Positions 37,856 to 53,144 of a stretch of DNA of 64,000 nt are shown piece after piece. Position 1 is the stretch's first letter. Each line of letters begins with the position of its first letter. Made by a program: the position numbers and the translations under genes. Source of the DNA: Desulfomicrobium sp. (GTDB lineage Bacteria > Desulfobacterota > Desulfovibrionia > Desulfovibrionales > Desulfomicrobiaceae); contig JAXGMI010000003.1 of assembly GCA_040768745.1 (NCBI GenBank), positions 192,001-256,000 of the forward strand, written 5' to 3'. The notes under the pieces are model-generated. The model did not search any database. It was not told the origin of the DNA and worked only from the letters and a program-made list of their open reading frames with translations.

Positions 37856-39160
37856 TCAGAAGTCGAGGATGGTGGAAGAAATGCCGAAATACTCCAGGAT
37901 GGCCCGCCCCACATGGGTGGGCGTGCGGGCCGGGGCCGCGGCGGAGTCGAAAAAGAACACGTCGTCGGGGGTGTGCATGCCCTGACGGCCGAAATGGCCG
38001 AACATGGCCTGGCGGCCGAACTTGCCTTTCAGGTCGAACCCAGGCTCCGGGACCAGGACGAGGTCCGGGGCCAGATGAGCCTGGGGTCCGTGATACAGGT
38101 CCGCCCCCCTGTGGACCTGGCGGATGATCCGACGGCCCTGCCAGGTCAAGCCGCGCAGGGCCTCGCTCAGCTCTGTGGCAAGGTGCTTCGCATCGGACCG
38201 GGACAACTGCCCCCGGGCAAAGCGCTCCCTGGAGTGCATGTAGACGCGACCGGGGTCAAGGGCAAAGGCCCGCGTGGACGGCGCCATGGCCTCTGTGTCC
38301 CACTCGCTCTGGGGCGGTCGGGAAAAATGCAACAACCCTTGACCCTTGAGCCAGACGTTGAGATCCACCTCCTGCAGCAGCGCCGTGAACCCGTGATCAG
38401 CCATCACCATCAACCGCTTGGGTCCAGGGAGTTCCTCATACCGCTCCAGGGTCTGGCCGATGAGCCGGTCCCAGGTGGCCATGAGGTTCATGACCTCAGC
38501 GCGCCAGGGATGATGGGGTTCCACCAGGGCCGGGAAGAGGAAGTGGCCCAGACGATCTGTTTCCGTCAGCACGAGCATGAACATGTCCCAGGCCAGGTCC
38601 GGCCACAGGAGATCCACGGCCTTTCCGCGGCAGGCCAGGGTGCGGTGCAGCTCGGCCAGGAGAAAGCCGGGGTCCGTGGCTCCGGCCACGGTGTCCGCCT
38701 CGACGGTGTAGCCATGATCGGCCAGGATCCCTCCCAGGGCAGGCGGATGGACCGCACCGCACAGATCCCGGGCCGGGAAACCGGCCACCAGCAGGGCCCG
38801 CATGGGCCGCACGGGCGCGAGATTCGGCATGTTGACGACCTTGGCGAACAGGCCGGCATCGGCCATGCGTTCGAATATGGTCAGCCCATGCACATGGCTG
38901 AAATCCGTGAATTCGAGATGGTATGTCTGCGGGTTGATGCGGGTGAAGCCGAAAACCCCGTGGCCGCCGGGTGGGGCGGCGGTGAAGAGTGACGTCCAGT
39001 TCACGGGAGAGAGTTCGGGCAGTTCGGCCCGGATGGGCCGACACCCGGAGGCGTCCATGATCCTGGCCAGATGGGGCAACAGGCCTTGTTGGCAAAGGCT
39101 TTGGGCCACGGACCAGGGCAGGCCGTCCAGGCCAAGAAAAACCAGTCGGGAACCATGCAT
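37856..39160 (-). CDS. Alkaline phosphatase superfamily / nucleotide pyrophosphatase-phosphodiesterase
   Basis: GLDG, PELSPVNWTS, ETDRLGH, ADHGF, GMH. Confidence 0.82.
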   Translation of the reverse strand: MHGSRLVFLGLDGLPWSVAQSLCQQGLLPHLARIMDASGCRPIRAELPELSPVNWTSLFTAAPPGGHGVFGFTRINPQTYHLEFTDFSHVHGLTIFERMADAGLFAKVVNMPNLAPVRPMRALLVAGFPARDLCGAVHPPALGGILADHGYTVEADTVAGATDPGFLLAELHRTLACRGKAVDLLWPDLAWDMFMLVLTETDRLGHFLFPALVEPHHPWRAEVMNLMATWDRLIGQTLERYEELPGPKRLMVMADHGFTALLQEVDLNVWLKGQGLLHFSRPPQSEWDTEAMAPSTRAFALDPGRVYMHSRERFARGQLSRSDAKHLATELSEALRGLTWQGRRIIRQVHRGADLYHGPQAHLAPDLVLVPEPGFDLKGKFGRQAMFGHFGRQGMHTPDDVFFFDSAAAPARTPTHVGRAILEYFGISSTILDF

Positions 39161-39259
39161 GGAGGCCGTGTAGCAGGGGGGGGGATGGTTGACCAGTCCG
39201 GAATGGTCCAGGCAGCCGGAGACGCTGCACGAAACCATCCACGGCCCGAGCGGACCCCG

Positions 39260-39748
39260 TCAGGCCTGCAGCAGGGCCTGTTCCACGGCCTCGGCCACCT
39301 CGGTCCCGGTCAGGGTCTCCCCGGTCTCGAACAGGGCCCGCTGCACGTTGATCTCGCGCATGACCCCGATGTGGTCGCGGTCCACAAACCCCTTCCAGAC
39401 CGCCATGCATTTTTCCACCTGCCCCCTCCGGGCATAGGCCAATCCGAGGTACAGGCAGGCCAGGTATTCCCCCGGATGCTGTCTGGTGACCATGAGCAGG
39501 GTGTCCTTGGCCTGCACATACTCGCCCAGATGGTAATGGCACAGGCCCTGCCGCACGCGGGCCTCCTTGTGGGCCCGATTCTCCTTGAGCACTTCCTTGT
39601 AGAGGTCCCGGGCCTGGAGATAATCCTTGCGGACGTAGGCGGCATCGGCCGCGGCAATGTCCGCCCCAATGCCGGAAACCGGCTTGTCCCCGCCTGCCTC
39701 ACGCAAACGCCGGGCCATGCCGAAGAGAAGGTCGCGTCTGGAAATCAT
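39260..39748 (-). CDS. Tetratricopeptide repeat protein
   Basis: TPR-like helices (GLCHYHLGEY, LYLGLAYARRG); N-terminal SRRDLL. Confidence 0.75.
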   Translation of the reverse strand: MISRRDLLFGMARRLREAGGDKPVSGIGADIAAADAAYVRKDYLQARDLYKEVLKENRAHKEARVRQGLCHYHLGEYVQAKDTLLMVTRQHPGEYLACLYLGLAYARRGQVEKCMAVWKGFVDRDHIGVMREINVQRALFETGETLTGTEVAEAVEQALLQA

Positions 39749-39891
39749 GGATACCTCTATATATATTGATGAAGGTGCGCTGAATCTAGCATGGCGGCGA
39801 CGCCGTCCCGGTGTGGGCCGAGGCATGACGCCGTCCGTACGGCAGTCGACGCCGGAGACAAACGCGGCATGATCCAACCTACCCCAGTCAG

Positions 39892-40047
39892 GAAGATGGA
39901 TTCCCGCCTATCCTGACGGGCGCACGTTCGTGGGATGACGCGACGATGTGAAGGCTTGAGGTTTGCCTGCCGGACCAGCCAAGGCAGATGCCTGCCCTCG
40001 ACGTCATTCCCGCGCAGGCGGGCTTGTACCCGATAGGGTGAATCCAT
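39892..40047. repeat. Inverted pair of REP-like palindromes (family 1, ATTCCCGCG.AGGCGGGAAT), each with an 18-nt insert
   Basis: Copies 39892-39940 and 40002-40047 match the intact copy at 48411-48442 once 39909-39926 and 40023-40040 are removed. Confidence 0.75.
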
Positions 40048-40274
40048 GCCTTTCAAAGCCGCCCCCATTCGCCATGCCGAGCATGGGTGCGCAACGGATC
40101 AGCGAGCCTTTTTGCGCGGCAATCCGGCCTTTCGCCGGCCTGATCCAGACCCAGTTCCGGTGAACCGCGCCCTTCTCCCCGTGCTGTTGACATTCCAAAG
40201 ATTCCTTACCATGAAGAGCCACTTCAGAGTAAGAAAACCGGCACAGTCCGAAATCTGTATTCCCGGAGGGGACA

Positions 40275-41909
40275 ATGTTCAAGAGACTTCTCGTCAGCCT
40301 CGCATTCCTGCTGCTCTGCGCCGCACAGGTCTCGGCGGAGGTCAAGACCTTCGCGGTCCTGCCCTTTGGCGTGCACGGCCCGCAGGAATATCAATATCTG
40401 AGCCAGGGCATCCAGAGCATGCTGACCACCCGCCTGACCTGGCCCGACACCTTCACGCCGTTGGATGCCGGGACGGTCAAGAAGGCCGTGACTGCACCTC
40501 CCGCCGATGCCGCCGCTGCCACCAAAATCCGCCAGGCCCTGGGTACTGATTACCTGGTGTGGGGTTCCCTGACCGTCATGGGTCAGGAATGCAGCCTGGA
40601 CGTCAACACGCTGGATCCTGCGGGTCAGAACACTCCCCATCCGGTCCAGACCACCTTGAGCCAGGTCATCCCCAGTTTGGAAACCGTGTCCAAGAACATC
40701 AATGCGCAGGTCTTCGGCAAGCCCGAAACAGCCGTGGCCAAGGCCCAGCCCGCGGTCCAGCCCATGAACCAGGCCCTCATCGTCAACGAGACCCAGGGCG
40801 GTACGGCCTATGCCAACCCCTCCCTCAAGTATCAGGACATGGATGCGAGCATGGGCCGCTGGCGCAGTCAGACCCTGCCTGTTGCCTCGCGCGGCATGGT
40901 CGTCTGCGACGGGGACGGGGACGGCAAGAATGAAGTCTTCATGCTGACCGAGACCACCCTGTTCGCCTTTCGCATTCAGCAGAACGAGATGCGCGAGGTC
41001 GCAAAGCTGGAGCTGCCCAAACATGTCAACTTCGTGCGGCTGAACAGCATCGACCTGAACCGCGACGGTCGCCACGAACTGGTCATTGCCGGGGCCATGG
41101 ACAAGGACCCGCGGTCCCTTGTGGTGGGATTCGAAGGCGGGAAATTCTCCATGCAGGCCGACCGCATTCCCTACTTCCTGGGCGTTCTGAACATGCCGCC
41201 GGCCTTCACCCCCACCCTGGTGGGCCAGGGCGTGGGCCAGATGAAATACCTGGACAGCAAGATCCACCAGATGATCAAGGCCGAGGGCACGTATGCCCTC
41301 GGACCGGCCGTGGACCTGCCCATGGGCGGCACAGTCTTCAACACGACCTTCCTCCCTTTTGAAGACGGGCACCAGATCATCATGGTCGACGACTTCGACC
41401 GCATGCGCATCTACAGCTCCACGGGCGCCCTCCTGACCGTCACCGAAGAAACCTATGCCGGGTCCAACCTGGGTGTGGAATACAGCACCGCCCCTCTCGG
41501 GCTCAACCCCCCGCGCGCCACGGAGGTTCCGCCGGACAAGGTCTTCATCCCTCTGCGGGGCATTCCCACAAACCTGGACAAGGACAAACGTTATGAACTG
41601 ATCATCAGCCGGAACATCTCGGTCTCGGCCCAGATTTTCTCCAACTACCGCGACTACCCCCAGGGCGAGATCCATTCCCTGTACTGGGACGGGGTGGGCA
41701 TGAGCCTGCAATGGAAGACGGCCCGCATCAAGGGCACGGTGACCGACTATGCCCTGGCCGACCTGGACAATGACGGGACCCTGGATCTGGTGGTCAACAT
41801 CAACACCCACACCGGCATGGTCGGCACGGCCAAGAAAAAGACCATGATCGTGGCCTACCCCCTGGATTTGTCCCAGGCAGGGGGGACGATTCAAAAAAAT
41901 GTACCGTAA
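40275..41909 (+). CDS. Exported FG-GAP/VCBS repeat protein
   Basis: Signal peptide; DGDGDGKNE, DLNRDGRHEL, DLDNDGTLDL repeats. Confidence 0.8.
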   Translation: MFKRLLVSLAFLLLCAAQVSAEVKTFAVLPFGVHGPQEYQYLSQGIQSMLTTRLTWPDTFTPLDAGTVKKAVTAPPADAAAATKIRQALGTDYLVWGSLTVMGQECSLDVNTLDPAGQNTPHPVQTTLSQVIPSLETVSKNINAQVFGKPETAVAKAQPAVQPMNQALIVNETQGGTAYANPSLKYQDMDASMGRWRSQTLPVASRGMVVCDGDGDGKNEVFMLTETTLFAFRIQQNEMREVAKLELPKHVNFVRLNSIDLNRDGRHELVIAGAMDKDPRSLVVGFEGGKFSMQADRIPYFLGVLNMPPAFTPTLVGQGVGQMKYLDSKIHQMIKAEGTYALGPAVDLPMGGTVFNTTFLPFEDGHQIIMVDDFDRMRIYSSTGALLTVTEETYAGSNLGVEYSTAPLGLNPPRATEVPPDKVFIPLRGIPTNLDKDKRYELIISRNISVSAQIFSNYRDYPQGEIHSLYWDGVGMSLQWKTARIKGTVTDYALADLDNDGTLDLVVNINTHTGMVGTAKKKTMIVAYPLDLSQAGGTIQKNVP

Positions 41910-42031
41910 AAAAAATTTAACTTTGAGGGAAAATCGAGGGAAAAAAGCTTGCTTTTTGAACTCGAGTTGCCGTAGTTGAAACCCAAGCGTCAGGTAATTC
42001 GTTTGTTTTTTAATGCTAAAGGAGGAAGAGC

Positions 42032-43378
42032 ATGAAACGTTTTGCACTCGTAGCCCTGTTGGCCGCCATGATGTTTGGCATTGCCACCAGCGCTTCCGCG
42101 ACCGAACTGAAAGTGAAAGGCAATTTGGACGTCTACGGATTGTGGTCGGCCAACCTGCGTGATTTCGACTCCGATGTCAGCGACGGTGACAATTTCGGCG
42201 CCACCCAGCGTATGCGCACCTACTTCACCTTCCTGGCCAACGAGAACCTGAAGGCGGTCCTGGGCCTGGAAATCAACACCGATTGGGGCCAGGGCGCCGG
42301 CGGCGACTGGGGTACTGACGGCACGACCGACACCCGCGTCAAGCACGCCTATATCGATTTCAACTTTCCGGACACCAAGATCAACACCAAGGCCGGCCTG
42401 CAGGCTATCTCCCTGCCCGGCGTCTTCGGCAACCCTGTTTTCAGTGACGACGCCGCTTCCGTGGTGGTCAGCGCCCCCATCACCGACATGTTCGGCCTGG
42501 CCGTCGGGTATACCCGCGGCGCAGACCGCTACGACCCCAATGATGTCAGCTTCAACAGAAACACCGGCGAGTTTGCTGACTATCCCGACCAGGACGACAT
42601 GGACATGGTCTTCCTGCTCGCCCCCATCAAGCTGGAAGGTTTCGCGGTCACTCCGTACTTCGCCTATGCCATGGTTGGCGAGAACGTGTCCTTTGCTGGC
42701 CAGCAGGGCTTGGATACCGGCAATGCCGCCTATGGGAATTACCTCCTTGACGATTCCACCATCTGGGTTGCTGGCGCCAACGCCAAGCTGACCGTGTTCG
42801 ACCCGCTGACCTTTGCCGCTGACCTGATCTACGGCGTCGGCGAGAACGACGACTACGAGACCAAGGGCTGGTATGCCGCCCTGGCCGGGTCCTACAAGTT
42901 CTCCATGCTGACCGCCACCCTGTTCGGCACCTACGGCACCGGCGCGGACGACGAGGACGACGAGGACAACTTCCTGCCGACCCTGGCCGAAGCCTGGGAA
43001 ATCACCCCTTACCTGGGTGGCAAGCGCGCCTTCAACACCGGCTGGTCTGATACAGGCTTCTTCACCGGCACCACCGTCACCGGCCGGGATGGAACCGGTA
43101 TCTGGACCGTCGGCCTGAGCTTGGACAAGATCACCTTTGTGGACAAGCTGTCCCACAGCCTGACCTTCGCTTATGCCCAGGGCACATCCGATGAAGACGC
43201 CGACGTGCTTTTCGACGAAGACGACTCCGCCTGGGAAGTGTACATGGTCAACAAGTACATGATCTACGAAAATCTGGCCGCCATCAACGAACTGGGCTTC
43301 TTCGCCCCGGATCTCGAAGATGCCGACGATGCCGACAACTCCTACTTCGCCACCATCGGCTTCAAGTACGACTTCTAA
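42032..43378 (+). CDS. Outer-membrane homotrimeric porin (copy 1)
   Basis: Signal peptide, QRMRTYF..NENLKAVLGLEI, acidic beta strands, C-terminal Phe. Confidence 0.85.
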   Translation: MKRFALVALLAAMMFGIATSASATELKVKGNLDVYGLWSANLRDFDSDVSDGDNFGATQRMRTYFTFLANENLKAVLGLEINTDWGQGAGGDWGTDGTTDTRVKHAYIDFNFPDTKINTKAGLQAISLPGVFGNPVFSDDAASVVVSAPITDMFGLAVGYTRGADRYDPNDVSFNRNTGEFADYPDQDDMDMVFLLAPIKLEGFAVTPYFAYAMVGENVSFAGQQGLDTGNAAYGNYLLDDSTIWVAGANAKLTVFDPLTFAADLIYGVGENDDYETKGWYAALAGSYKFSMLTATLFGTYGTGADDEDDEDNFLPTLAEAWEITPYLGGKRAFNTGWSDTGFFTGTTVTGRDGTGIWTVGLSLDKITFVDKLSHSLTFAYAQGTSDEDADVLFDEDDSAWEVYMVNKYMIYENLAAINELGFFAPDLEDADDADNSYFATIGFKYDF

Positions 43379-43404
43379 GCAAAGCCTACACACCTGACGC
43401 CTGC

Positions 43405-43438
43405 GGGCCGGAGACGCAAAACTCCGGCCCTTTTTTTT
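43405..43438 (+). terminator. Rho-independent terminator
   Basis: GGGCCGGAG-ACGCAAAA-CTCCGGCCC followed by T8. Confidence 0.85.
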
Positions 43439-43535
43439 CCGGCGCATCCGGTTTGAGCGGACGCGCACAGATGGGCTCTTACAGCAATACTCCGAGCTTT
43501 CGACAGAACACAGCGGGTGAACATGACGTTTGATT

Positions 43536-43570
43536 CGTCTTCGCGAGGCGTCTGCGCCGTGGCGATCCAT
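43536..43570. repeat. REP-like element, family 2, uninterrupted copy
   Basis: CGTCTTCGCGAGGCGTCTGCGCCGTGGCGATCCAT aligns without gaps to 51765-51817 minus its insert. Confidence 0.6.
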
Positions 43571-43735
43571 GCGGATACCTCATCTCCTCCCTGCCCTTGC
43601 CGATCGGTCGGTACATTTTTTTTAACTTTCCCTGAAAATATGCCCAAAAAGGGATTGCTTTTTGTACCTTCTTTAATCTAGAAAATTGAGTTGGCGTCAG
43701 ATGTCATTCATTATTGCAAAAGGAGAAAGTGTTCT

Positions 43736-45037
43736 ATGAAACGTTGTGCACTCGTTGCTCTGCTGGCCGCCATGCTGTTCGGCCTTGCCTTCAGCGCTTC
43801 CGCCACCGAGCTGAAGGTCAAAGGCAATCTGGACGTTCACGGCCTGTGGTCAGCAAACCTGAGAGATTTTGATTCCGACACTGCTGATGGGGACAACTAC
43901 TACACCACCCAGCGCATGCGCACCTACTTCACCTTCCTGCAGAGCGAAAACCTGAAGGCGGTCCTGGGCCTGGAAATCAACACGGACTGGGGCCAGGGCT
44001 CCGGTGGCGACTGGGGTACCGACGGCACCCTCGACACCCGCGTCAAGCACGCCTACATCGATTTCAAGTTCCCGGACACGGCCATCAACGTCAAGGCCGG
44101 TTTGCAGGGAATCTCCCTGCCGAGCATCTTCGGCAACCCGGTTTTTGATGACGACGCCGCCGCCCTGGTGGTCAGCGCCCCCATCAACGATATGTTCGGC
44201 CTGACCGTCGGGTATACCCGCGGCGCAGACCGCAACGACAATAACGATGTCAGCTTCAACAGAATGACCGGGGAGTTCACAGATTATGCCGACCAGGACG
44301 ACATGGACATGGCTTTCCTGGCCGCCCCCATCACCCTGGACGCCTTTGCCCTGACCCCCTACTTCGCCTATGCCATGATCGGCGAGAACACGGGCTATTC
44401 CTACCAGAATAATGATGACTCCACTGTGTGGATCGTGGGTGCCAATGCGGAACTGACCGTGTTCGACCCCCTGACCTTTGCCGCTGACGTGATCTACGGC
44501 GTTGGCGAAAGCGACGACTACGAGACCAAGGGCTGGTATGCCGATCTGGCCGCGTCCTACAAGTTCTCCATGCTGACCGCCACCCTGTTCGGCACCTACG
44601 GCACCGGCGCGGACGACGAGGACGACGAAGACAACTTCCTGCCCACCCTGGCTGAAGGCTGGGAACTGACCCCCTACCTTGGCGGCCTCCGCGCCTTCAG
44701 CACCGCTGCCTCTGACGGCTTCTTCACCGACACCGTGGGCGTGGGCAACTCCGGAACCGGCCTGTGGACTGTCGGCGTGAAGCTGGCCGACATCACCTTT
44801 GTCGACAAGCTGTCCCACAACCTGACTGTGCTGTACGCCAGGGGCACCTCCGACGAAGACGCCGACGTGTGGTTCGACGAAGAAGACTCCGCCTGGGAAG
44901 TGTACATGGTCAACAAGTACATGATCTACGAGAACCTGGCCGCCATCAACGAACTGGGCTTCTTCGCCCTGGATCATGACGATGCGGATACCGACAACTC
45001 CTACTTCGGTTCTGTCGGCTTGTCCTACAAGTTCTAG
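43736..45037 (+). CDS. Outer-membrane homotrimeric porin (copy 2)
   Basis: Close paralog of 42032..43378; C-terminal Phe; AGGAG RBS. Confidence 0.85.
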   Translation: MKRCALVALLAAMLFGLAFSASATELKVKGNLDVHGLWSANLRDFDSDTADGDNYYTTQRMRTYFTFLQSENLKAVLGLEINTDWGQGSGGDWGTDGTLDTRVKHAYIDFKFPDTAINVKAGLQGISLPSIFGNPVFDDDAAALVVSAPINDMFGLTVGYTRGADRNDNNDVSFNRMTGEFTDYADQDDMDMAFLAAPITLDAFALTPYFAYAMIGENTGYSYQNNDDSTVWIVGANAELTVFDPLTFAADVIYGVGESDDYETKGWYADLAASYKFSMLTATLFGTYGTGADDEDDEDNFLPTLAEGWELTPYLGGLRAFSTAASDGFFTDTVGVGNSGTGLWTVGVKLADITFVDKLSHNLTVLYARGTSDEDADVWFDEEDSAWEVYMVNKYMIYENLAAINELGFFALDHDDADTDNSYFGSVGLSYKF

Positions 45038-45064
45038 TTCTGGTTTTTTCATCTGACGCCCCAA

Positions 45065-45098
45065 GGGCCGGAGACGCAAAACTCCGGCCTTTTTTTTT
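45065..45098 (+). terminator. Rho-independent terminator
   Basis: Same hairpin as after porin 1, followed by T tract. Confidence 0.85.
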
Positions 45099-45205
45099 GC
45101 CAGCAACCCGTTCATCGCTCATTAACCTGGCGTGTCCCGGTTCACGGCCGATGAAGGGTTTGACTTTTCAGGGGTTGGCGGCATAGAAAATGGCGTTGGA
45201 CAATA

Positions 45206-45251
45206 CGTCTCCCTTGGGGACGAGACGGATTCCCGCGAAGGCGGGAATCCA
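45206..45251. repeat. REP-like palindrome family 1 with 19-nt insert
   Basis: CGTC[TCCCTTGGGGACGAGACGG]ATTCCCGCGAAGGCGGGAATCCA. Confidence 0.7.
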
Positions 45252-45302
45252 AGTCTTTGCCCGGGCAATCCGCACGCCCGGAACAGCAACATGAGAACAT
45301 CG

Positions 45303-46604
45303 ATGCCCTTACATTCCATATCCTATTCTTCTTCCCAAGATTGGCCAGCCATCTCCTCCTGGCTGTCCCGCCGGGATGCATCCGCGGACAATGTCGAACC
45401 CCTGGTGCGCGACATCCTGGCCGCTGTCCGGGAACGCGGCGACGAAGCGGTCATCGGGTATGCCAGACGGTTCGACTGCCCGACCTTCTCCGCGGAACAG
45501 CTGGCCGTGTCCGGAAAGCAGATCGCCCGCGCCCTGGACCACATCCCAGCCGAGGATGCCGGGATCATCGCCGAGGCCGCCGGCAACATCCGCTCTTTTC
45601 ACGAGCATCAGAAACAGCGCTCCTGGATCACCACCCCCGCCCCCGGCACGACCCTGGGCCAGCTCATCCTGCCTGTGGACCGGGCCGGGCTGTATGTCCC
45701 CGGCGGTCAGGGCGGGGAGACGCCCCTCATCTCCAGCCTGATGATGAACGCCATCCCGGCGCAGGTGGCCGGGGTGAAGAGCATCTGCGTGGTCAGCCCC
45801 CCCCGCAAGGACGGTTCGTTGAATCCCTATATCCTTGCCACGGCGGCCATTCTCGGCATCGACACGGTCTTTCTGTGCGGGTCGGCCTGGGCCATTGCGG
45901 CCCTGGCCTACGGCACGGCCAGCATTCCGCGGGTCGATGTCATCGCCGGTCCTGGCAATATCTTCGTGACCACGGCCAAGCGCCTTCTGGTCGGCCAGGT
46001 CGGCATCGACATGATCGCCGGACCGAGTGAAATCGCCATCCTGGCCGACTCCTCGGCCAACCCGAAATGGCTGGCCGCTGACATGCTCTCCCAGGCCGAG
46101 CACGACCCCCTGGCTTCAAGCCTCCTGGTTTCGCCTGATGCCGCGTTGCTGCACGCCGTCAGGGATGAACTCGCGGTCCAGCTTTCCGCCCTGCCCCGGG
46201 CCGAGATCGCGGCCAAGGCCATGTCCGACTGGAGCGCGCTGATCCAGGTGCCCAGCCTGGAAGCCGGCATGGACCTGATCAACCTGCTCGCCCCTGAGCA
46301 TTTCGAGCTGTGCGTGTCCGACCCGTGGCCCCTGCTCGGCATGGTCCGCAATGCCGGCGCGGTGTTCATGGGCCACAGCACCCCCGAGCCCGTGGGCGAC
46401 TATTTCGCCGGGCCCAACCACGTCCTGCCGACCCTGTCCACGGCCCGCTTCTCCTCGGCCTTGTCCGTGGACACATTCTGCAAAAAAACAAGCCTCATCA
46501 GCACGGACATGCGGTACATGCAAACCCATGGCCGTAAAATTTCCCGTTTGGCCCGGCTGGAGGGCCTTGAAGCCCATGCCCGCAGCGTGGAGCAACGACT
46601 GTAA
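45303..46604 (+). CDS. hisD: Histidinol dehydrogenase
   Basis: GLYVPGG, GPGNIFV, DMIAGPSE, SQAEHD, APEH, GDYFAGPNHVLPT; start may be 45291. Confidence 0.95.
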   Translation: MPLHSISYSSSQDWPAISSWLSRRDASADNVEPLVRDILAAVRERGDEAVIGYARRFDCPTFSAEQLAVSGKQIARALDHIPAEDAGIIAEAAGNIRSFHEHQKQRSWITTPAPGTTLGQLILPVDRAGLYVPGGQGGETPLISSLMMNAIPAQVAGVKSICVVSPPRKDGSLNPYILATAAILGIDTVFLCGSAWAIAALAYGTASIPRVDVIAGPGNIFVTTAKRLLVGQVGIDMIAGPSEIAILADSSANPKWLAADMLSQAEHDPLASSLLVSPDAALLHAVRDELAVQLSALPRAEIAAKAMSDWSALIQVPSLEAGMDLINLLAPEHFELCVSDPWPLLGMVRNAGAVFMGHSTPEPVGDYFAGPNHVLPTLSTARFSSALSVDTFCKKTSLISTDMRYMQTHGRKISRLARLEGLEAHARSVEQRL

Positions 46605-46616
46605 CCCGGAGGTTGC

Positions 46617-47516
46617 ATGAACATCGTCACCAAGACCAATATCCGCGAATTCCCCCTCCTTTCGCGCGGAAAAGTTCGCGATATCTATGAAATCGATGCG
46701 CAGACCCTGCTCATCGTGACCACGGACCGCATGTCCGCCTTTGACGTGGTCATGAACGAGGCCATCCCGTACAAAGGCGTGGTCCTGAACCGGATCACCG
46801 TGTTCTGGATGGACACATTCAAGGATCTGGTCGCCAATCACCTCCTGGCCACGGATGTGCGCGACTTCCCGGCGGCCCTGACCCCGTATCACGACCAGCT
46901 GGAAGGGCGGGCAGTGCTGGTCCGACGGGCCAGGCCCCTGCCCATCGAATGCATCGTGCGCGGCTACCTGACCGGCTCGGGCTACAAGGACTATCTCGCC
47001 ACGGGCTCGGTCAGCGGCCACAAGCTCCCGGCCGGACTGGTCGACGCGGACAAGCTGGAAAAACCTCTGTTCACCCCGTCCACCAAGGCCGATCTTGGCC
47101 AGCACGACGAGAACATCAGCCTGGCCGACGCCAAATCCCGCATCGGCGAAGGACTGGTCAAAAAAGTGCAGGATCTGTCCTTGGCCATCTACTCCCGCGG
47201 CCGGGATCTGGCTGCCAGCCGTGGCATCATCATCGCCGACACCAAATTCGAGTTTGGTCTGGACGGCAAGGAACTTCTGCTCATCGACGAGGTGCTGACC
47301 CCGGATTCCTCCCGCTTCTGGCCGGCCGGCCAGTACGCGCCTGGGAAATCCCAGCCCAGCTTCGACAAGCAGTATCTGCGGGACTGGCTGAGCGGCACCG
47401 GGTGGGACAAGACCCCGCCTCCGCCGGCTCTCCCGGCCGAAGTCATCGCCGAGACACAGAAGAAATACCTGGAAGCCTACGAACTGCTGACTGGCGAACC
47501 CTTGCAATTGCCGTAA
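46617..47516 (+). CDS. purC: SAICAR synthetase
   Basis: GKVRDIY, TDRMSAFD, ECIVRGYL, ADTKFEFG, DEVLTPDSSR, SFDKQ. Confidence 0.96.
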   Translation: MNIVTKTNIREFPLLSRGKVRDIYEIDAQTLLIVTTDRMSAFDVVMNEAIPYKGVVLNRITVFWMDTFKDLVANHLLATDVRDFPAALTPYHDQLEGRAVLVRRARPLPIECIVRGYLTGSGYKDYLATGSVSGHKLPAGLVDADKLEKPLFTPSTKADLGQHDENISLADAKSRIGEGLVKKVQDLSLAIYSRGRDLAASRGIIIADTKFEFGLDGKELLLIDEVLTPDSSRFWPAGQYAPGKSQPSFDKQYLRDWLSGTGWDKTPPPPALPAEVIAETQKKYLEAYELLTGEPLQLP

Positions 47517-47529
47517 GGCGCAACCCAAC

Positions 47530-48306
47530 ATGGAGAAGCACATGCTCGTCCAAGGAAAAAAAGCTTTGATCTTCGGAGTGGCCAACGACAAGAGCATCGC
47601 CTACGCCATTGCCAAGGAACTCAAGGAGAATGGCGCATCCATTGCCCTTTCCTATGCCGGCGAGGCCCTCAAAAAACGGGTCGAACCGATTCACGAGGAA
47701 CTGAACGGGGACTTCCTCTTCCAGTGCGACGTGACCGACGACCAGGCCCTGGTCCAATCCGCCGAGCTGGTGAAGGAGAAATGGGGCAATTTCGATATCC
47801 TGGTCCATTCCATAGCCTTTGCCAACCGCGACGATCTGAAAGGCCGCTATGTCGACACGCCCCGGGCAGGGTTCCATTTGGCCATGGACATTTCGGCCTA
47901 TTCCCTGGTGGCCCTGTGTCAGGCCTTTGAGAAGATGATCAATGACCACGGCTCGATCATGGCCATGACCTATTACGGGTCCGAGAAAGTCATCCCCAAT
48001 TACAACATCATGGGCGTGGCCAAGGCCGCCCTGGAAACCAGCGTCCGCTATCTGGCCATGGACCTGGGCGAGCGGGGAATCCGGGTCAACGCCATCAGCG
48101 CCGGTCCCCTCAAGACCCTGGCCTCGTCCGGCATCTCCGGCTTCAAAACCATTCTGTCCACCATCGAGGAGCGCGCCCCCCTGCGCCGCAACATCGTGCA
48201 GGAAGACGTGGGCAAGACCGGACTGTTCCTGGCCTCGGACCTGTCCCTGTCCATCACCGGGGAAGTCATCCACGTGGACTCCGGCTACAACATCATGGGG
48301 ATCTGA
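47530..48306 (+). CDS. fabI: Enoyl-ACP reductase
   Basis: GVANDKSIA, HSIAFA, YNIMGVAKAALE, AISAGPLKTLA. Confidence 0.95.
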   Translation: MEKHMLVQGKKALIFGVANDKSIAYAIAKELKENGASIALSYAGEALKKRVEPIHEELNGDFLFQCDVTDDQALVQSAELVKEKWGNFDILVHSIAFANRDDLKGRYVDTPRAGFHLAMDISAYSLVALCQAFEKMINDHGSIMAMTYYGSEKVIPNYNIMGVAKAALETSVRYLAMDLGERGIRVNAISAGPLKTLASSGISGFKTILSTIEERAPLRRNIVQEDVGKTGLFLASDLSLSITGEVIHVDSGYNIMGI

Positions 48307-48332
48307 TCCATTCCCGGACATCAGACGACATC

Positions 48333-48361
48333 AAACCCCTTCCCGCGAAGGGGTTTTTTTT
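48333..48361 (+). terminator. Rho-independent terminator
   Basis: AAACCCCTTC-CCGC-GAAGGGGTTT followed by T tract. Confidence 0.8.
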
Positions 48362-48410
48362 CGCCTTCAATCCTCTTTCCGATTCATTGTTCACGACCCC
48401 GCCCCCCGAT

Positions 48411-48562
48411 GAAGATGGATTCCCGCCTTCGCGGGAATGACGCTTCCGGTCTCGTCAATTCTTCTTCCTATTCGGCCTTCCGATGAATAACGGACCGTCC
48501 GCGCAACATCCGGGCATTCCCGCGCACGTGTGCACAGCATGGGCAGGTGGGAATCCATCTTC
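48411..48562. repeat. Inverted pair of family 1 REP-like palindromes (one intact, one with a 19-nt insert)
   Basis: GAAGATGGATTCCCGCCTTCGCGGGAATGACG (48411-48442); CATTCCCGCGCA[19 nt]GGTGGGAATCCATCTTC (48515-48562). Confidence 0.8.
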
Positions 48563-48605
48563 CTGCAGCCAACCGCGACAACAATTCCGTCCTCCAGCGC
48601 CTCAA

Positions 48606-48779
48606 GGTCCGTTGGCGGCGGGGCATTCGACCCCGTCGGCTGTCTGACTGAGCCAGGCATCGTTTGTTGAATCGTTGTCTGACGCGCGGCCTGGATTTCG
48701 CACACGACACGCAACGATTCAACTCTAAGAGGCCAGCGAAGGAGTTCCGGCGGGTCGAATGCCCCGCCGCCAACGGACC
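48606..48779. mobile_element. MITE-like element with perfect 28-bp terminal inverted repeats
   Basis: GGTCCGTTGGCGGCGGGGCATTCGACCC (48606-48633) and its complement (48752-48779); inner 12-bp IR at 48666-48677 / 48712-48723. Confidence 0.6.
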
Positions 48780-48925
48780 GCCTCGCGCATACCTCACACC
48801 TCATGCCTCATACCGCTTGCATCTTCCGCAAGCCGCAGCCCCTTCCTTTCCAACCGCCACCTTGCGCCGCGCCCGAAGATGCTTATTTCCCAATACTTCA
48901 ACACCATAAACCGGAGGCCACCCTC

Positions 48926-49357
48926 ATGGAAAAAATACACGCCGTCTGTCCCAACTGCCAGGCCGTCAACGCCGTGCTGGCCGAGCGCATCCCCCAGCAA
49001 CCTGTCTGCGGGAAATGCGGGACCGCACTCCTGTCCGGCCATCCCGTGGATCTCACGGACCTGACCTTCGACCGCCTCATTTCCCGCTCCACCCTGCCCG
49101 TGGTGGTCGATTTCTGGGCGCCCTGGTGCGGGCCCTGCAAGATGATGGGCCCGGCCTTCGCGCAGGCCGCTGCCGCGCTGCAAGGGCAGGCGGTTCTGGC
49201 CAAACTGGACACCGAATCCCACGGAACAGTGGCGTCCAGGTTTGGAATCCAGTCCGTGCCCAGCATGATCCTGTTCCGTCAGGGCAGGGAAACAGCCCGT
49301 ACGGCCGGGGCCATGCCCCCCGGGCAGATCCTGTCCTGGGTGCGCCAGCATCTCTAG
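48926..49357 (+). CDS. trxC: Thioredoxin 2 with N-terminal zinc finger
   Basis: CPNC..CGKC followed by WCGPC; GGAGG RBS. Confidence 0.92.
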   Translation: MEKIHAVCPNCQAVNAVLAERIPQQPVCGKCGTALLSGHPVDLTDLTFDRLISRSTLPVVVDFWAPWCGPCKMMGPAFAQAAAALQGQAVLAKLDTESHGTVASRFGIQSVPSMILFRQGRETARTAGAMPPGQILSWVRQHL

Positions 49358-49447
49358 ACATTGTGCGGAAACGGAAATTGCGGCACCCCGACAATTTTCC
49401 ACTTGCCAAAGAAATTCGCGTGACATAGAGACGGATTTCTCTCGCGC

Positions 49448-49539
49448 GGAGAGGTGGCCGAGTCTGGCTTAAGGCGCACGCCTGGAAAGTGTGTGTACCT
49501 TAACGGGTACCGGAGGTTCAAATCCTCTCCTCTCCGCCA
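49448..49539 (+). tRNA. tRNA-Ser(GGA)
   Basis: GGAGAGG/CCTCTCC acceptor stem, CT-GGA-AA anticodon loop, long variable arm, GGTTCAAATCC, encoded CCA. Confidence 0.95.
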
Positions 49540-49555
49540 CTCCTACAAATTGAGC

Positions 49556-49638
49556 GAAGCCGGGTGGCGGAAACGCTGCCAACCCCGTCAGGTCTGAAAG
49601 GAAGCAGCGGTAACAGTTGTTTTCGGGTACCTGGCTTC
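49556..49638 (+). ncRNA. ffs: Signal recognition particle RNA (4.5S)
   Basis: TCAGGTCTGAAAGGAAGCAGC core in a long hairpin GAAGCCGGGT..ACCTGGCTTC; ends approximate. Confidence 0.9.
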
Positions 49639-49823
49639 CCTGGCAGGTGCGACATGTTCGTTCCTGCCTTTTCTTTTTTCTCCCCCCTTGACGCCGCCCT
49701 GAATCCATCCAATGAAGAATGGATGGCATATCGACATTGAATCCATCAATGCCCCCCATTTGTGTTTTCAGTTTCAATCTGAATACAATTTCAGGTACTG
49801 CCAAAATTCCTCAAGGAGGAGCC

Positions 49824-50672
49824 GTGAAGAAATTCTCGTTTATGGTTAGCTTGCTGATGGGGCTGGGTGTCCTGCTTCTGACCTGGCCAGACCACGCCTG
49901 TTCCGCCCGCATGGGTGGTGGGAAGTCCTTTGGGAGCAGGCCATCCTATTCCCAGAAATACCAGAAACCCGCTCCTGCGCCTGCTTCCCCGACCCAGCAG
50001 GCTGCGCCTGCCGGTTCCCCCATGGGAGGGCGCGGCATGTTCGGCGGCCTCCTGGGCGGCATGCTCATGGGCGGCCTCCTGGGATCCCTCTTTTTCGGCG
50101 GCCCGTTCACAGGCCCCTCCCTCGTGGACATCCTGCTCATCGGCGGCGGCCTGTTCCTGCTTTTTCGCTTTCTGCGCAGCCGGCAGCCGGCCATGCAGAC
50201 CCCGGGCAGTCCTGCGCGGGACAGGAGCCCTGGAGGGGCATGGGACACCTTGCGCTCGGCGCAGTCCTCCCCCCAGTCCCCGAGTTCTCGCGTCCCGGCG
50301 GGATTTGACGAACAGGAGTTCCTGGACGGCGCCAAGGCCGCCTACACCCGCCTGCAGGCAGCGTGGGACGCACGCGATCTGGAGGACATCCGCCAATTCA
50401 CCTCCGACGAGGTTTATGCGGAGATCCAAGCCCAGACTGCCACAGACCCCAATCCTGGCCGCACGGAAATTCTTCTGCTGGAAGCCCGGCTGCTGGAAGT
50501 GAACACCCTGGGCAACCAGACCGTGGCCACCGTTCTTTTTGACGCCATGCTGCGCGAAGGTTCTGCCCACAAGCAGGCCGAACAGGTCCGCGAGGCGTGG
50601 CATTTCAGCCGCTACGAAACAGGCGGCAGCTCGCACTGGGTCGTGGAAGGCATCCAGCAGCTGGAGCGGTAG
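49824..50672 (+). CDS. Tim44-like domain protein
   Basis: ARMGGGKSFGSR, Gly-rich TM region, FLDGAKAAYTRLQAAWD, WVVEGIQQ; GTG after AGGAGGAG. Confidence 0.85.
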   Translation: MKKFSFMVSLLMGLGVLLLTWPDHACSARMGGGKSFGSRPSYSQKYQKPAPAPASPTQQAAPAGSPMGGRGMFGGLLGGMLMGGLLGSLFFGGPFTGPSLVDILLIGGGLFLLFRFLRSRQPAMQTPGSPARDRSPGGAWDTLRSAQSSPQSPSSRVPAGFDEQEFLDGAKAAYTRLQAAWDARDLEDIRQFTSDEVYAEIQAQTATDPNPGRTEILLLEARLLEVNTLGNQTVATVLFDAMLREGSAHKQAEQVREAWHFSRYETGGSSHWVVEGIQQLER

Positions 50673-50674
50673 CC

Positions 50675-50902
50675 ATGCCTGAGGATACGATCAGCTGCCC
50701 GATCTGCGGCCATCCCGCACGCATCAGCGGCAGGTGAGCCACGGCGCGCATCTTGTGCGGGTTCTGCATGAGTGACGTCCTGGCCGCCCATCATCGGGAC
50801 GCCATCGAGGCCTACAAAGAAGCGCTTATTGCCGGCGCCAATCCTGACCAGACGCCGGAACATAGAATTGTCACACTCAATTGCGAAAGGGAGCAACCAT
50901 GA
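50675..50902 (+). pseudogene. Small CxxC...CxxC zinc-ribbon ORF with internal TGA (50735-50737)
   Basis: MPEDTISCPICGHPARISGR*ATARILCGFCMSDVLAAHHRDAIEAYKEAL...; starts 2 nt after the Tim44 stop and ends in an ATGA overlap with the next gene. Confidence 0.45.
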
Positions 50903-51651
50903 AACGCATCGTCACCCTGACCATCCTGTTCTGTTCCATTGCCTCCTCCGTACTGGCCGCAAATCCCGAGGATGCGCTCAAGGCCCTGAACCTTGGCAAC
51001 CAGAAGTACGTTCTGGAGCAATCCATGGAAGGCGGACCGCTGGCTGCCGTCATTGTCGATCCGACCGTAAGCGCATCTCCTGCTGCCCTGTTCGGGCTTG
51101 CGGGTACCCAGCTGATCGCGGCCAAAACCGATGGCACAGGGCTGGAACAGGCCCTGGGGGCCCCCCTGATTCTCATCCTCGGGACCGAGGAAAATGCCGT
51201 GTGGGCAGTCTATGCCGAAGTGCTGAAGTCCTCCGCAGATCTGATCCACGCAGTGCTCAAAGGAAAGACCGTCATCCAGGGCGCTGTCCTGACCCCTTCC
51301 ACTGGCGAGGTGAAAATCCTGGGCTCCCATCCCGATCTTGTGATCATGGCCGCCCAGCACGTCCTGGGCACCCCAGCCCAGCCTGCTCCAGCTGACGCGA
51401 CGCCCGCCCCCCCAGCAATGGAAAACCCCGCTGCCGGGGAATCCCCTGCAGCCCAAACCCAGGCCGATCCCGCACCGGAAGCGGCACAAGGTGAAAGCCA
51501 TGCGACGCCGGTCCAAGCCGACCAGAACGCTGCCACGGCAGAAAAGCACGAAGCGCCTGCCTCTGGCGGAGGGCCTGTCGGTGTCATCATTTTCATCCTG
51601 GCCCTCATCGCCGCCGTGGTTTTCATGGATAAAACCGTGCTGAAACCCTGA
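50899..51651 (+). CDS. Exported, C-terminally anchored degenerate beta-carbonic-anhydrase-like protein without zinc ligands
   Basis: Segment-by-segment similarity to 52068..53144, but CSDSR and HxxC are absent. Confidence 0.7.
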   Translation: MKRIVTLTILFCSIASSVLAANPEDALKALNLGNQKYVLEQSMEGGPLAAVIVDPTVSASPAALFGLAGTQLIAAKTDGTGLEQALGAPLILILGTEENAVWAVYAEVLKSSADLIHAVLKGKTVIQGAVLTPSTGEVKILGSHPDLVIMAAQHVLGTPAQPAPADATPAPPAMENPAAGESPAAQTQADPAPEAAQGESHATPVQADQNAATAEKHEAPASGGGPVGVIIFILALIAAVVFMDKTVLKP

Positions 51652-51696
51652 ACCAGCTCATTCGATTTCTAAATGAGAATGATGCCCGAAAAAGTC

Positions 51697-51817
51697 ATGG
51701 GTTGCCACGCGCCCTGCGGTCGCACCCTGAAGGGTATGGACTCGCAATGACGAGAAACGACTCTCGTCATCGCGCAGGGCTCGACTTTTGCGAGGAGTCT
51801 TCGACGAAGCAATCCAC
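51697..51817. repeat. Inverted pair of family 2 REP-like elements, each with an 18-nt insert
   Basis: ATGGGTTGCCACG..GC[51724-51741]TCGCAATGACG and CGTCATCGCG[51775-51792]AGGAG..GCAATCCAC. Confidence 0.7.
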
Positions 51818-52067
51818 GCCTTTTGAAATTACTGCTTTGATATAGAAATTGAATGACCAGCGGCGTGCAGGGACGACTTGCGCGCCGTTTTTTTTGGCAT
51901 GACGCCCATGGCCTCGCGAAAGATGCATTCTTCCGATAGGGGGACGCCTTGAAATGCGAGAGAGGTTAGGATAAGCTTGTGCAACTTTTCCCGAGCGGCA
52001 CGATGCGACGGCAGCGTCACACGCAGGGGGGGTGCACATCAATTTTCACAATTGCAGGGGGTTTCGC

Positions 52068-53144
52068 ATGTTCGTCAAACGTCTTGTCCTGATCGCGTTT
52101 TTCACCTTGGCGCCAATGGTGCTCATGGCCTCTTCCGAGGCAACCCATCCTGTCAGCCCGGAACAGGGGTTGCAGATGCTGGTTGACGGCAATCTTCGCT
52201 TTTCCCTGGGCCAGGCCGCCCGTCCCAATTCTGATTTCTCCCGCCGCCTGCTGACCGCGACCAAGGGGCAGGCCCCCTTTGCCACGATCATTGCATGCTC
52301 CGACTCCCGCGTTCCGGTGGAAATTCTGTTTGACCAGGGCGTTGGCGATCTTTTCGTCATCAAAGTCGCCGGCAATGTGGCCGACATCGATGAAATCGGG
52401 TCCGCCGAATACGGCGTGGACCATCTCGGCACGCCGGTGTTGATGGTTCTGGGTCATACCTACTGCGGCGCTGTCACGGCCGTGACAACGGGTGCCGAAG
52501 TCCATGGCGCCATTCCCCAGCTGGTGGACAACATCATTCCGGCCCTGGAGAAGGCAAAACATGAGCATCCCCAGGCTGAAGGCGCCGATCTCATTGCCAA
52601 GGTCACTGATGCGAACCTCTGGCAGGCGGTGGAGGATCTGCTGACCAAAAGCCATGCCATCTCTGCCCGCGCTGCGGCAGGCAAGGTTGCCGTTGTCGGG
52701 GCCATGTATGACATTTTGAGCGGCAAGGTCACAATTCTGGGAACGCACCCCAGGCAGGCTGAACTCCTTGCTGGCGCCAGCCATGCAGCCCCTGCTGGAC
52801 ATGGCGCCCATCCAGCTCCCGCCGCAGCCGCAGGCCACGCCGAACCGGCCAAGGCTGCCGCCCATGCAGAACCGGCCAAGGCTGCCGCCCATGCAGAACC
52901 GGCCAAGGCCGCGCAGGCCCCCAAGCATGCCGAACCAGCGGCCGCCCACGGCGAACAGAAAGCCGCTCCGGCCAAGGCTGTCCACGAAGCGCCAGCAGCT
53001 GAAAAAAAGGGTGATCATGCCCAGGCCGCGCAGGCCGAGGAAAAATCCGGCGGCTTCGGGTTCATGTCGTTCATCATCTTCGTTCTCCTGCTCATCGGCG
53101 CGGTCATTGTCCTGGACAAGAAGGTGCTGAACCCCGAAAAGTAG
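52068..53144 (+). CDS. Exported beta-carbonic anhydrase with His/Ala-rich linker and C-terminal TM anchor
   Basis: Signal peptide; ACSDSRVP, GDLFVIKVAGN, LGHTYCGAV. Confidence 0.9.
   Translation: MFVKRLVLIAFFTLAPMVLMASSEATHPVSPEQGLQMLVDGNLRFSLGQAARPNSDFSRRLLTATKGQAPFATIIACSDSRVPVEILFDQGVGDLFVIKVAGNVADIDEIGSAEYGVDHLGTPVLMVLGHTYCGAVTAVTTGAEVHGAIPQLVDNIIPALEKAKHEHPQAEGADLIAKVTDANLWQAVEDLLTKSHAISARAAAGKVAVVGAMYDILSGKVTILGTHPRQAELLAGASHAAPAGHGAHPAPAAAAGHAEPAKAAAHAEPAKAAAHAEPAKAAQAPKHAEPAAAHGEQKAAPAKAVHEAPAAEKKGDHAQAAQAEEKSGGFGFMSFIIFVLLLIGAVIVLDKKVLNPEK
52842..52909 (+). repeat. 27-bp coding tandem repeat, about 2.5 copies (EPAKAAAHA)
   Basis: GAACCGGCCAAGGCTGCCGCCCATGCA twice plus a partial copy. 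Confidence 0.9.

Follow-up and report, generated by a model that had tools for sequence, protein, structure and literature searches.

What are the short extra blocks that interrupt palindromic repeats of Desulfomicrobium sp., and how did they get there? The question is raised by a 64,000-nt stretch of DNA (C3:192001-256000 of a 3.09-Mb genome of 99.99% completeness; hereafter, the window), in which porin, carbonic anhydrase and hisD genes, the last assigned by NCBIfam, lie around such repeats. A first-pass annotation had taken six blocks of 18-19 nt for mutually unrelated oligonucleotides, placed into hairpin DNA by a precise, enzyme-like process. All six blocks are where they had been reported, both families of host repeats exist, and slippage or random indels indeed do not explain such fixed-length pieces. 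What does not hold is that they are unrelated sequences written de novo: read on the right strand, five of the six are copies of two conserved units, which share a common anatomy and recur in this genome and its relatives, in several unrelated hosts and in many phyla.

Overall, we are dealing with a real and widespread family of 18-21-nt hairpins acting as discrete insertions, of a kind that is known but little studied. The unit is discrete and of constant anatomy, one of its strands folds, and it needs no target duplication. It occupies several non-homologous hosts, orthologous sites exist in filled and empty states, neighbouring units in tandem may be non-identical, and units nest within each other. 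That the inserts are discrete mobile units we regard as very probable. The features of the window are as follows (G and L labels are our working names for genomes and loci; C1 to C3 stand for contigs):

39896..39940, minus strand: host repeat 1 (CGTC/NTS-type repetitive extragenic palindromic, REP, sequence), loop interrupted; empty orthologues in G018, G014, G023, G008 and G009
39909..39926, minus strand: unit A, 18 nt, degenerate stem, after a GCGAA-type loop site; a 19-nt A variant at the orthologous site in G019 and G003
40002..40047, plus strand: host repeat 1, right arm interrupted at GCGGG^AATCC; G018 and G014 empty, with matching downstream flank
40023..40040, plus strand: unit A, 18 nt, with 4-nt leader, 5-bp stem and 4-nt loop
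43536..43570, plus strand: host repeat 2, intact
45207..45221, plus strand: conserved small hairpin upstream of hisD, no insert; collinear in the orthologous loci of G009, G020, G018 and others
45227..45250, no strand: double-headed host-1 palindrome; relatives keep both copies, which suggests collapse of an inverted pair
48415..48442, minus strand: host repeat 1, intact
48512..48558, plus strand: host repeat 1, loop interrupted
48527..48545, plus strand: unit A, 19-nt variant with 5-nt loop; 13 of the 14 loop-site matches in the genus carry this variant
51699..51752, minus strand: host repeat 2 (partner copy), interrupted after GCGAG
51723..51740, minus strand: unit B, 18 nt, A-like stem, different leader; host 2 holds three more copies in other parts of the genome, one of which has a compensatory change in its stem
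51765..51817, plus strand: host repeat 2, interrupted; no unit in the paralogue at C2:682770, which shares the downstream flank
51770..51787, minus strand: unit D, 18 nt, one internal stem mismatch, reverse orientation; in register with D copies of the genome and relatives

Host Repeats and Inserted Units

Host repeat 1 is a REP of the CGTC/NTS (dRS3) type. The CGTC tag, the 8-bp stem, the 4-nt loop and the CCA tail are all present, and the repeat agrees with the Neisseria NTS consensus and with the description of the CGTC-1 REP in the accessible parts of PMC11893778 and PMC3733652, respectively. Split alignment at ≥20 bits recovered 37 host-1 loci genome-wide and none in the reversed genome; 16 are ungapped and 21 gapped, six of the latter by 17-19 nt, with any other gap length occurring at most twice. 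The same scan was noisier for host repeat 2 (seven ungapped copies at ≥20 bits, few clear gapped ones). Contigs of independent public runs span every site without gaps, which rules out an assembly artefact. One contig, from an RNA run, covers 39700-40204, which is not proof of transcription.

The five genuine inserts fall into two recurrent units of 18 (up to 21) nt, namely A/B (39909, 40023, 48527 and 51723) and D (51770). The sixth block, 45210-45228, was a misparse of ordinary upstream DNA; orthologues have the same upstream hairpin followed by an inverted host-1 pair, which here appears to have collapsed into one palindrome. The block first placed at 51775 is an insert, with a boundary better set five bases to the left (51770-51787), where it matches unit D. 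Copies 39909 and 51770 are too degenerate to fold well alone, and 51770 does not fold by itself (ViennaRNA).

A profile of unit A built from seven seed copies gave nine matches at ≥19 bits, all within host 1, versus one in the control; three further host-embedded copies lie at lower scores, among chance matches. Unit A occupies GCGGG^AAT on either host-1 arm, in opposite orientations, and also the loop. Three host-1 repeats combine an A on the arm with a second A in the loop on the other strand, and one of them holds a third A. Unit B, a resident of host 2, has the stem of A. The stem of unit D is a different one and contains an internal mismatch; D is found at several host-2 positions and in tandem in a fourth repeat family, the one flanking a GIY-YIG gene. 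Altogether, our genome list contains 28 units (16 A, 4 B, 8 D), hand-picked by host context, two of them in uncertain register. With profiles trained on other genomes, units stood out only weakly against chance: D gave three matches at ≥19 bits versus none, A gave none above the control, and the matches of unit C, known from relatives (see below), were a single insertion sequence (IS) coding stretch. As a side observation, in the host-1 copy C1:906120-906159 a loop-site A runs directly into the repeat tail, as if a doubly filled repeat had recombined between its units.

Unit Anatomy

The general layout is a leader of 4-6 nt followed by a stem closing on the last base. Such closure was found in 42 of 54 distinct 18-21-mers, while 1000 shuffles gave a mean of 12 and a maximum of 22, and the mirror test at the 5' end gave 15. 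The closing pair of the terminal stems is T-A (26), T-G (10) or C-G (6), and the base before the stem is G in 38 of the 40 inserts parsed with a leader. Stem pairs comprise 173 Watson-Crick, 35 G-T, a single A-C and 16 others; given the excess of G-T over A-C, only the leader-first strand folds well, and this strand is the more stable one as RNA in 43 of the 54. Units D and C show covariation at the closing pair (T-A 8, C-G 3, mismatched never).

The last base is A in 36 cases and G in 18, after a fixed host G, and so belongs to the stem and is not a duplication. A one-base target duplication, apparent in this genome, was accordingly ruled out on public data, where the last base is independent of the host base. 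Neither terminal inverted repeats (TIRs) nor target-site duplication, the hallmarks of miniature inverted-repeat transposable elements and IS, were found in the unit, which is asymmetric.

Insert Lengths and Taxonomic Spread

Within the genus, a pattern search for the stem site in 25 genomes, with gaps of 8-36 allowed, yielded 58 matches. Forty-nine are interrupted, all by 18-21 nt (18 nt, 9; 19 nt, 1; 20 nt, 22; 21 nt, 17), and the remaining nine are intact repeats with a chance downstream match. The loop site held A in all 14 matches (19 nt in 13, 18 nt in one). A third repeat family, in five genomes, has 21 copies, 15 of them empty and six filled, each by an 18-nt A.

An any-insert scan of the stem site in GTDB (one genome per species) returned at least 119 loci. 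Inserts of 18-21 nt occur in 66 of the 119 matches listed (p 8e-21 versus a flat range, for loci that are not independent), and the matches listed include records titled Desulfomicrobium, Sulfuricurvum, Smithella, Gammaproteobacteria, Bacteroidetes and Patescibacteria. Other insert families were also seen at the stem site: 19-nt AT-rich inserts in Bacteroidetes, inserts of 24-26 nt, and inserts of 32-33 nt in Patescibacteria (L106, L109, L117, L152; L090, L140, L149). A phylum sample gave 35 matches in 16 of 301 genomes, versus 11 in the control, those of G206, G470, G325 and G414 being the only ones clearly in repeats; a loose unit pattern in five distant genomes gave eight matches versus eight control matches. 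G206 (L353-L355) has eight copies of unit A, each in the loop of an NTS-like repeat and on its opposite strand; the stems of these host repeats differ, with compensating changes. Viral contigs contained one filled NTS-type repeat (L225:3001-3044), which is a possible route between hosts.

Filled and Empty Sites in Relatives

Orthologous loci show both filled and empty states. Among the 23 loci listed for comparison with 39909 and 40023, the two repeats are empty in G018, G014, G023, G008 and G009, the first site carries a 19-nt A in G019 and G003, and the repeats are altogether absent from many relatives. Of the pair upstream of hisD, most relatives have the left repeat empty; G013, G015 and G024 carry the 21-nt unit C there, and G007 carries two units A of 18 nt. 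The right repeat holds an insert in G013 and G007. A hisD tree with 21 rows places the filled G013 with the empty G003 and G019 (support 85/88), which calls for precise gain or loss. In the filled right repeat of G013, bases specific to that locus survive within 5-6 nt of the insert on both sides, an observation that speaks against whole-repeat conversion. In addition, two paralogous G199 loci differ by one unit. We infer that each filled site arose from an insertion, and not merely from repeat-wide conversion.

Arrays and Nesting

A metagenome scan for two tandem A units returned at least 120 loci, and the period is 18 in 86 of the 120 matches listed. We kept 72 loci with A-like leaders (68 after de-duplication) and dropped 48, many of which were simple coding repeats. 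By eye, the array hosts are GTAG-type repeats, NTS-like repeats and others. Loops differ in 37 of 102 pairs of adjacent units and are identical in 65; the differing pairs fit successive insertion of different copies, and the identical ones are also compatible with slippage or rolling copying. Upstream of the arrays (n = 68), position -1 is a purine in 60, position -2 a pyrimidine in 61 and position -5 a G in 40, a pattern resembling the unit's own end. It is tempting to suppose that family A preferentially lands after G-N-N-Y-R, a target that would mimic its own 3' end, leader and loop.

Nesting is seen when units are peeled off the arrays: this re-forms another unit in 3 of 72 loci, versus 26 of 14400 shuffles. 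The inner unit sits after the leader in L232 and L256 (two layers) and in the loop in L337. The array of L232 is composed of nine units, with six or seven spare leaders before them and five leaderless hairpins behind.

Possible Mechanisms of Mobility

The scenario that we rank first, while granting it somewhat less than an even chance, is that leader-plus-hairpin units of 18-21 nt move as single-stranded DNA by HUH-type (IS200/RAYT-like) cut-and-join in trans; once mobility is accepted, the HUH step alone falls only just below an even chance. An HUH-type enzyme supplied in trans would cut and join the unit as single-stranded DNA; the units sit at exact positions and in a set orientation, within palindromic repeats as well as within one another. 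An enzyme of this type had already been suggested by the first-pass annotation, and the suggestion is plausible. We place it first because the tag at the hairpin foot, the folding of one strand, the oriented, duplication-free insertion and the target resembling the right end are all HUH features. In the accessible parts of PMC6006769 and PMC8266576, HUH enzymes are described with a tetranucleotide 5' of the hairpin foot, single-stranded DNA, and similar target and right-end sites. By analogy, the leader may act like the guide at the foot of IS200 and REP hairpins.

Candidate enzymes do exist in the genome. Of the classes proposed in the first-pass annotation, Y1 has seven matches and GIY-YIG three (a 636-aa frame and two short ones), while RVT_1 and Cas1 have no match in the genome; the same is true of IS110. 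Three of these neighbourhoods deserve a description. An IS200-like Y1 gene near C1:497650 (L013:900-2200) has its own flanking array, which comprises two types of hairpin. Five near-identical Y1 genes (C2:641506, C1:429691, C1:119130, C3:260978, C3:262107), two of them broken, are bounded by short TIRs and look like a mobile TIR-Y1 element. A 98-aa GIY-YIG gene near C1:900670 (L011:2700-4400) lies in a long array of a different palindromic repeat and adjoins pilin-like and Y1 genes, in an Ssn-like arrangement.

Several observations weigh against transfer by an HUH enzyme. None of the matches listed for seven conspecific runs covering the stretch (contigs only) is an empty allele. The unit nearest to any of nine Y1/GIY-YIG genes is at least 5.5 kb away, and enzymes are not enriched beside units (2 in the 120 array loci listed, 1 in the 119 filled-repeat loci listed, 0 in 10 more); the Y1 gene with its own hairpin array carries different repeats. 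The units show no replication-strand bias (12 versus 16), whereas IS200/605 elements favour the lagging template, and inspection found no consistent leader-target pairing by the IS608 guide rule. Neither a cut at the very foot of the stem nor an 18-nt circle is described for HUH enzymes in the accessible parts of PMC6006769 and PMC8266576. In this genome the stem site agrees with the GNNYR rule only in part, unit D does not obey it, and the profile upstream of arrays is inflated by leftover leaders and degenerate earlier units. Finally, across the genus the leader sequence varies with the site, a pattern expected of subfamily inheritance.

The second scenario dispenses with excision. A single-strand nick or stalled 3' end in a hairpin repeat would use microhomology of about 5 nt to pair with a unit already present, or with a tandem junction, which a DNA polymerase would then copy in; a small Ssn-type GIY-YIG nuclease could be the source of the nick. 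This would account for a target resembling the unit's own end and for the predominance of identical neighbours in arrays (65 of 102), and the genome has the 98-aa GIY-YIG gene with its own repeat array, a repeat family in which D stands in tandem. Host 1 is, moreover, the NTS substrate of Ssn, but SsnA cuts a few bases upstream of NTS and not inside it, according to the accessible text of PMC11893778. The return junction, too, lacks homology with the donor, GTAG-type and other repeats also receive units, and strict folding of one strand would be unnecessary. We consider this route possible but unlikely.

A third explanation is RNA-mediated, the folded strand being an RNA that is reverse-transcribed into a nicked target; RNA-mediated mobility had reportedly been proposed for the small dispersed repeats (SDRs) of cyanobacteria. 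G-T (as RNA, G-U) pairs on one strand only (35 versus 1), the greater stability of the leader-first RNA (43 of 54), the fixed orientation and the intergenic, transcribable hosts all speak for it. On the other hand, a 99.99%-complete genome contains no RVT_1 match, though the insertions may be old; tails, truncations and duplications are absent; and G-T pairs are usual in hairpins of single-stranded DNA, too. This explanation is, in our view, distinctly doubtful.

Alternatively, the units might not be independently mobile at all: a few ancient fold-back accidents would have produced longer repeat subfamilies, spread whole by conversion or mobilisation, so that the apparent inserts would be constant parts of those subfamilies. 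For spread within one site this possibility holds in part: leader variants follow the site within the genus, the patchy filled and empty states on the hisD tree could be conversion, and no polymorphism is seen among the matches listed for conspecific runs. It fails where one unit occupies many non-homologous junctions and hosts, where locus-specific host bases are retained beside the junction, and where tandem units are non-identical or nested in several layers; we already strongly disfavour it and hold it to be very unlikely. As for the writing of unrelated fixed-length oligonucleotides into hairpins, as in spacer acquisition, the narrow length range would suit it, but random or captured oligonucleotides are ruled out, since the inserts keep falling into a few conserved families whose terminal stems covary, the genome has no Cas1 or IS110 match, and we practically dismiss it.

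Relation to Known Systems

Compared by description only, the units seem to work like SDRs, which are their closest known kind. Elhai et al. in 2008 are said to have described SDR units of 21-27 nt, with nesting and a shared secondary structure. Nested and tandem self-insertion would then be common to both, as are units of about 20 nt, precise insertion into another repeat, filled and empty sites, and tandem copies. The sizes differ from that reported range, as A, B and most D have 18-19 nt and only C and some D have 20-21 nt. The hosts differ, too, being CGTC/NTS and GTAG repeats here and HIP1 for SDRs, as does the range, with many phyla here and Nostocaceae there. According to the accessible text of papers citing the original work (PMC5861425, PMC4390886, PMC2884548), SDR5 is inserted between bases 3 and 4 of HIP1, SDR copies occur in tandem, and SDRs are confined to Nostocaceae among HIP1-rich cyanobacteria. 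Judged by eye among the 150 matches listed of 333, two Nostoc punctiforme plasmids contain leader-plus-terminal-stem-like units near HIP1-like ends.

The CGTC-1/dRS3/NTS repeat with its Ssn GIY-YIG nuclease corresponds to the host here and not to the insert. The accessible parts of PMC11893778 and PMC3733652 describe no fixed-length inserts inside the CGTC-1/NTS repeat. We found no ssnA-type gene flanked by host 1 in this genome; a different repeat family surrounds the small GIY-YIG gene at C1:900670, and none flanks the one at C2:627301.

REP/REPIN-RAYT and IS200/IS605 systems, as described in the accessible parts of PMC6006769 and PMC8266576, share with our units a short tag 5' of the hairpin foot, strand specificity, the lack of target duplication and a target like the right end. 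Unlike REP/RAYT, the unit is a single hairpin whose stem is the end of the element, its tag is variable, its junctions are not CT, and no flanked transposase gene was found. Specifically, in place of a GT(A/G)G tag at the hairpin foot, GTAG was seen in only 1 of 54 units, and the genome neighbourhoods searched revealed no unit copies flanking a cognate Y1 gene, the trait of a REPtron.

IS1397 and the IS110 family, which target REPs, are likewise site-specific for palindromic repeats. They are kilobase elements with their own transposase, and this genome has no IS110 match. Both are named in the references of PMC3733652 and PMC3116915. A literature search, in which subscription journals were thinly covered, found no description of these units and nothing on a 20-nt hairpin motif. 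We know of no described mobile element as short as the 18-nt units, which are likely among the smallest mobile pieces of DNA seen.

Other Features of the Window

Above threshold, Rfam detected solely a tRNA and a signal recognition particle (SRP) RNA over 39000-52500; the tRNA gene is followed by the SRP RNA at 49448-49646. Two tandem paralogous porin genes, about 85% identical, occupy 42032-45037, with a similar terminator after each. The filled repeat at 48527 adjoins an element at 48606-48779, which has perfect 28-nt TIRs and an inner inverted repeat. It is single-copy, no further copy being found in the genome at up to 5 mismatches.

Conclusions

In a broader view, to which we give an even chance, the units would belong to a cross-phylum superfamily of 18-nt single-hairpin mobile units that move between distant bacteria by a single-strand enzyme in trans, choose a five-base target mimicking their own end and form arrays and nests, with SDRs as one branch. 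Our results lower the size floor for discrete mobile bacterial DNA to 18 bases and indicate that SDR-like elements are no cyanobacterial oddity. The anatomy and the target rule define oligonucleotide substrates with which the movement of REP-sized repeats and SDRs becomes directly testable. The insertions break the NTS-type stem, the substrate of Ssn, and may switch such sites off. If clean insertion of an 18-nt oligonucleotide at a short target proves to be the work of an enzyme, this would be a new kind of minimal DNA-writing system.

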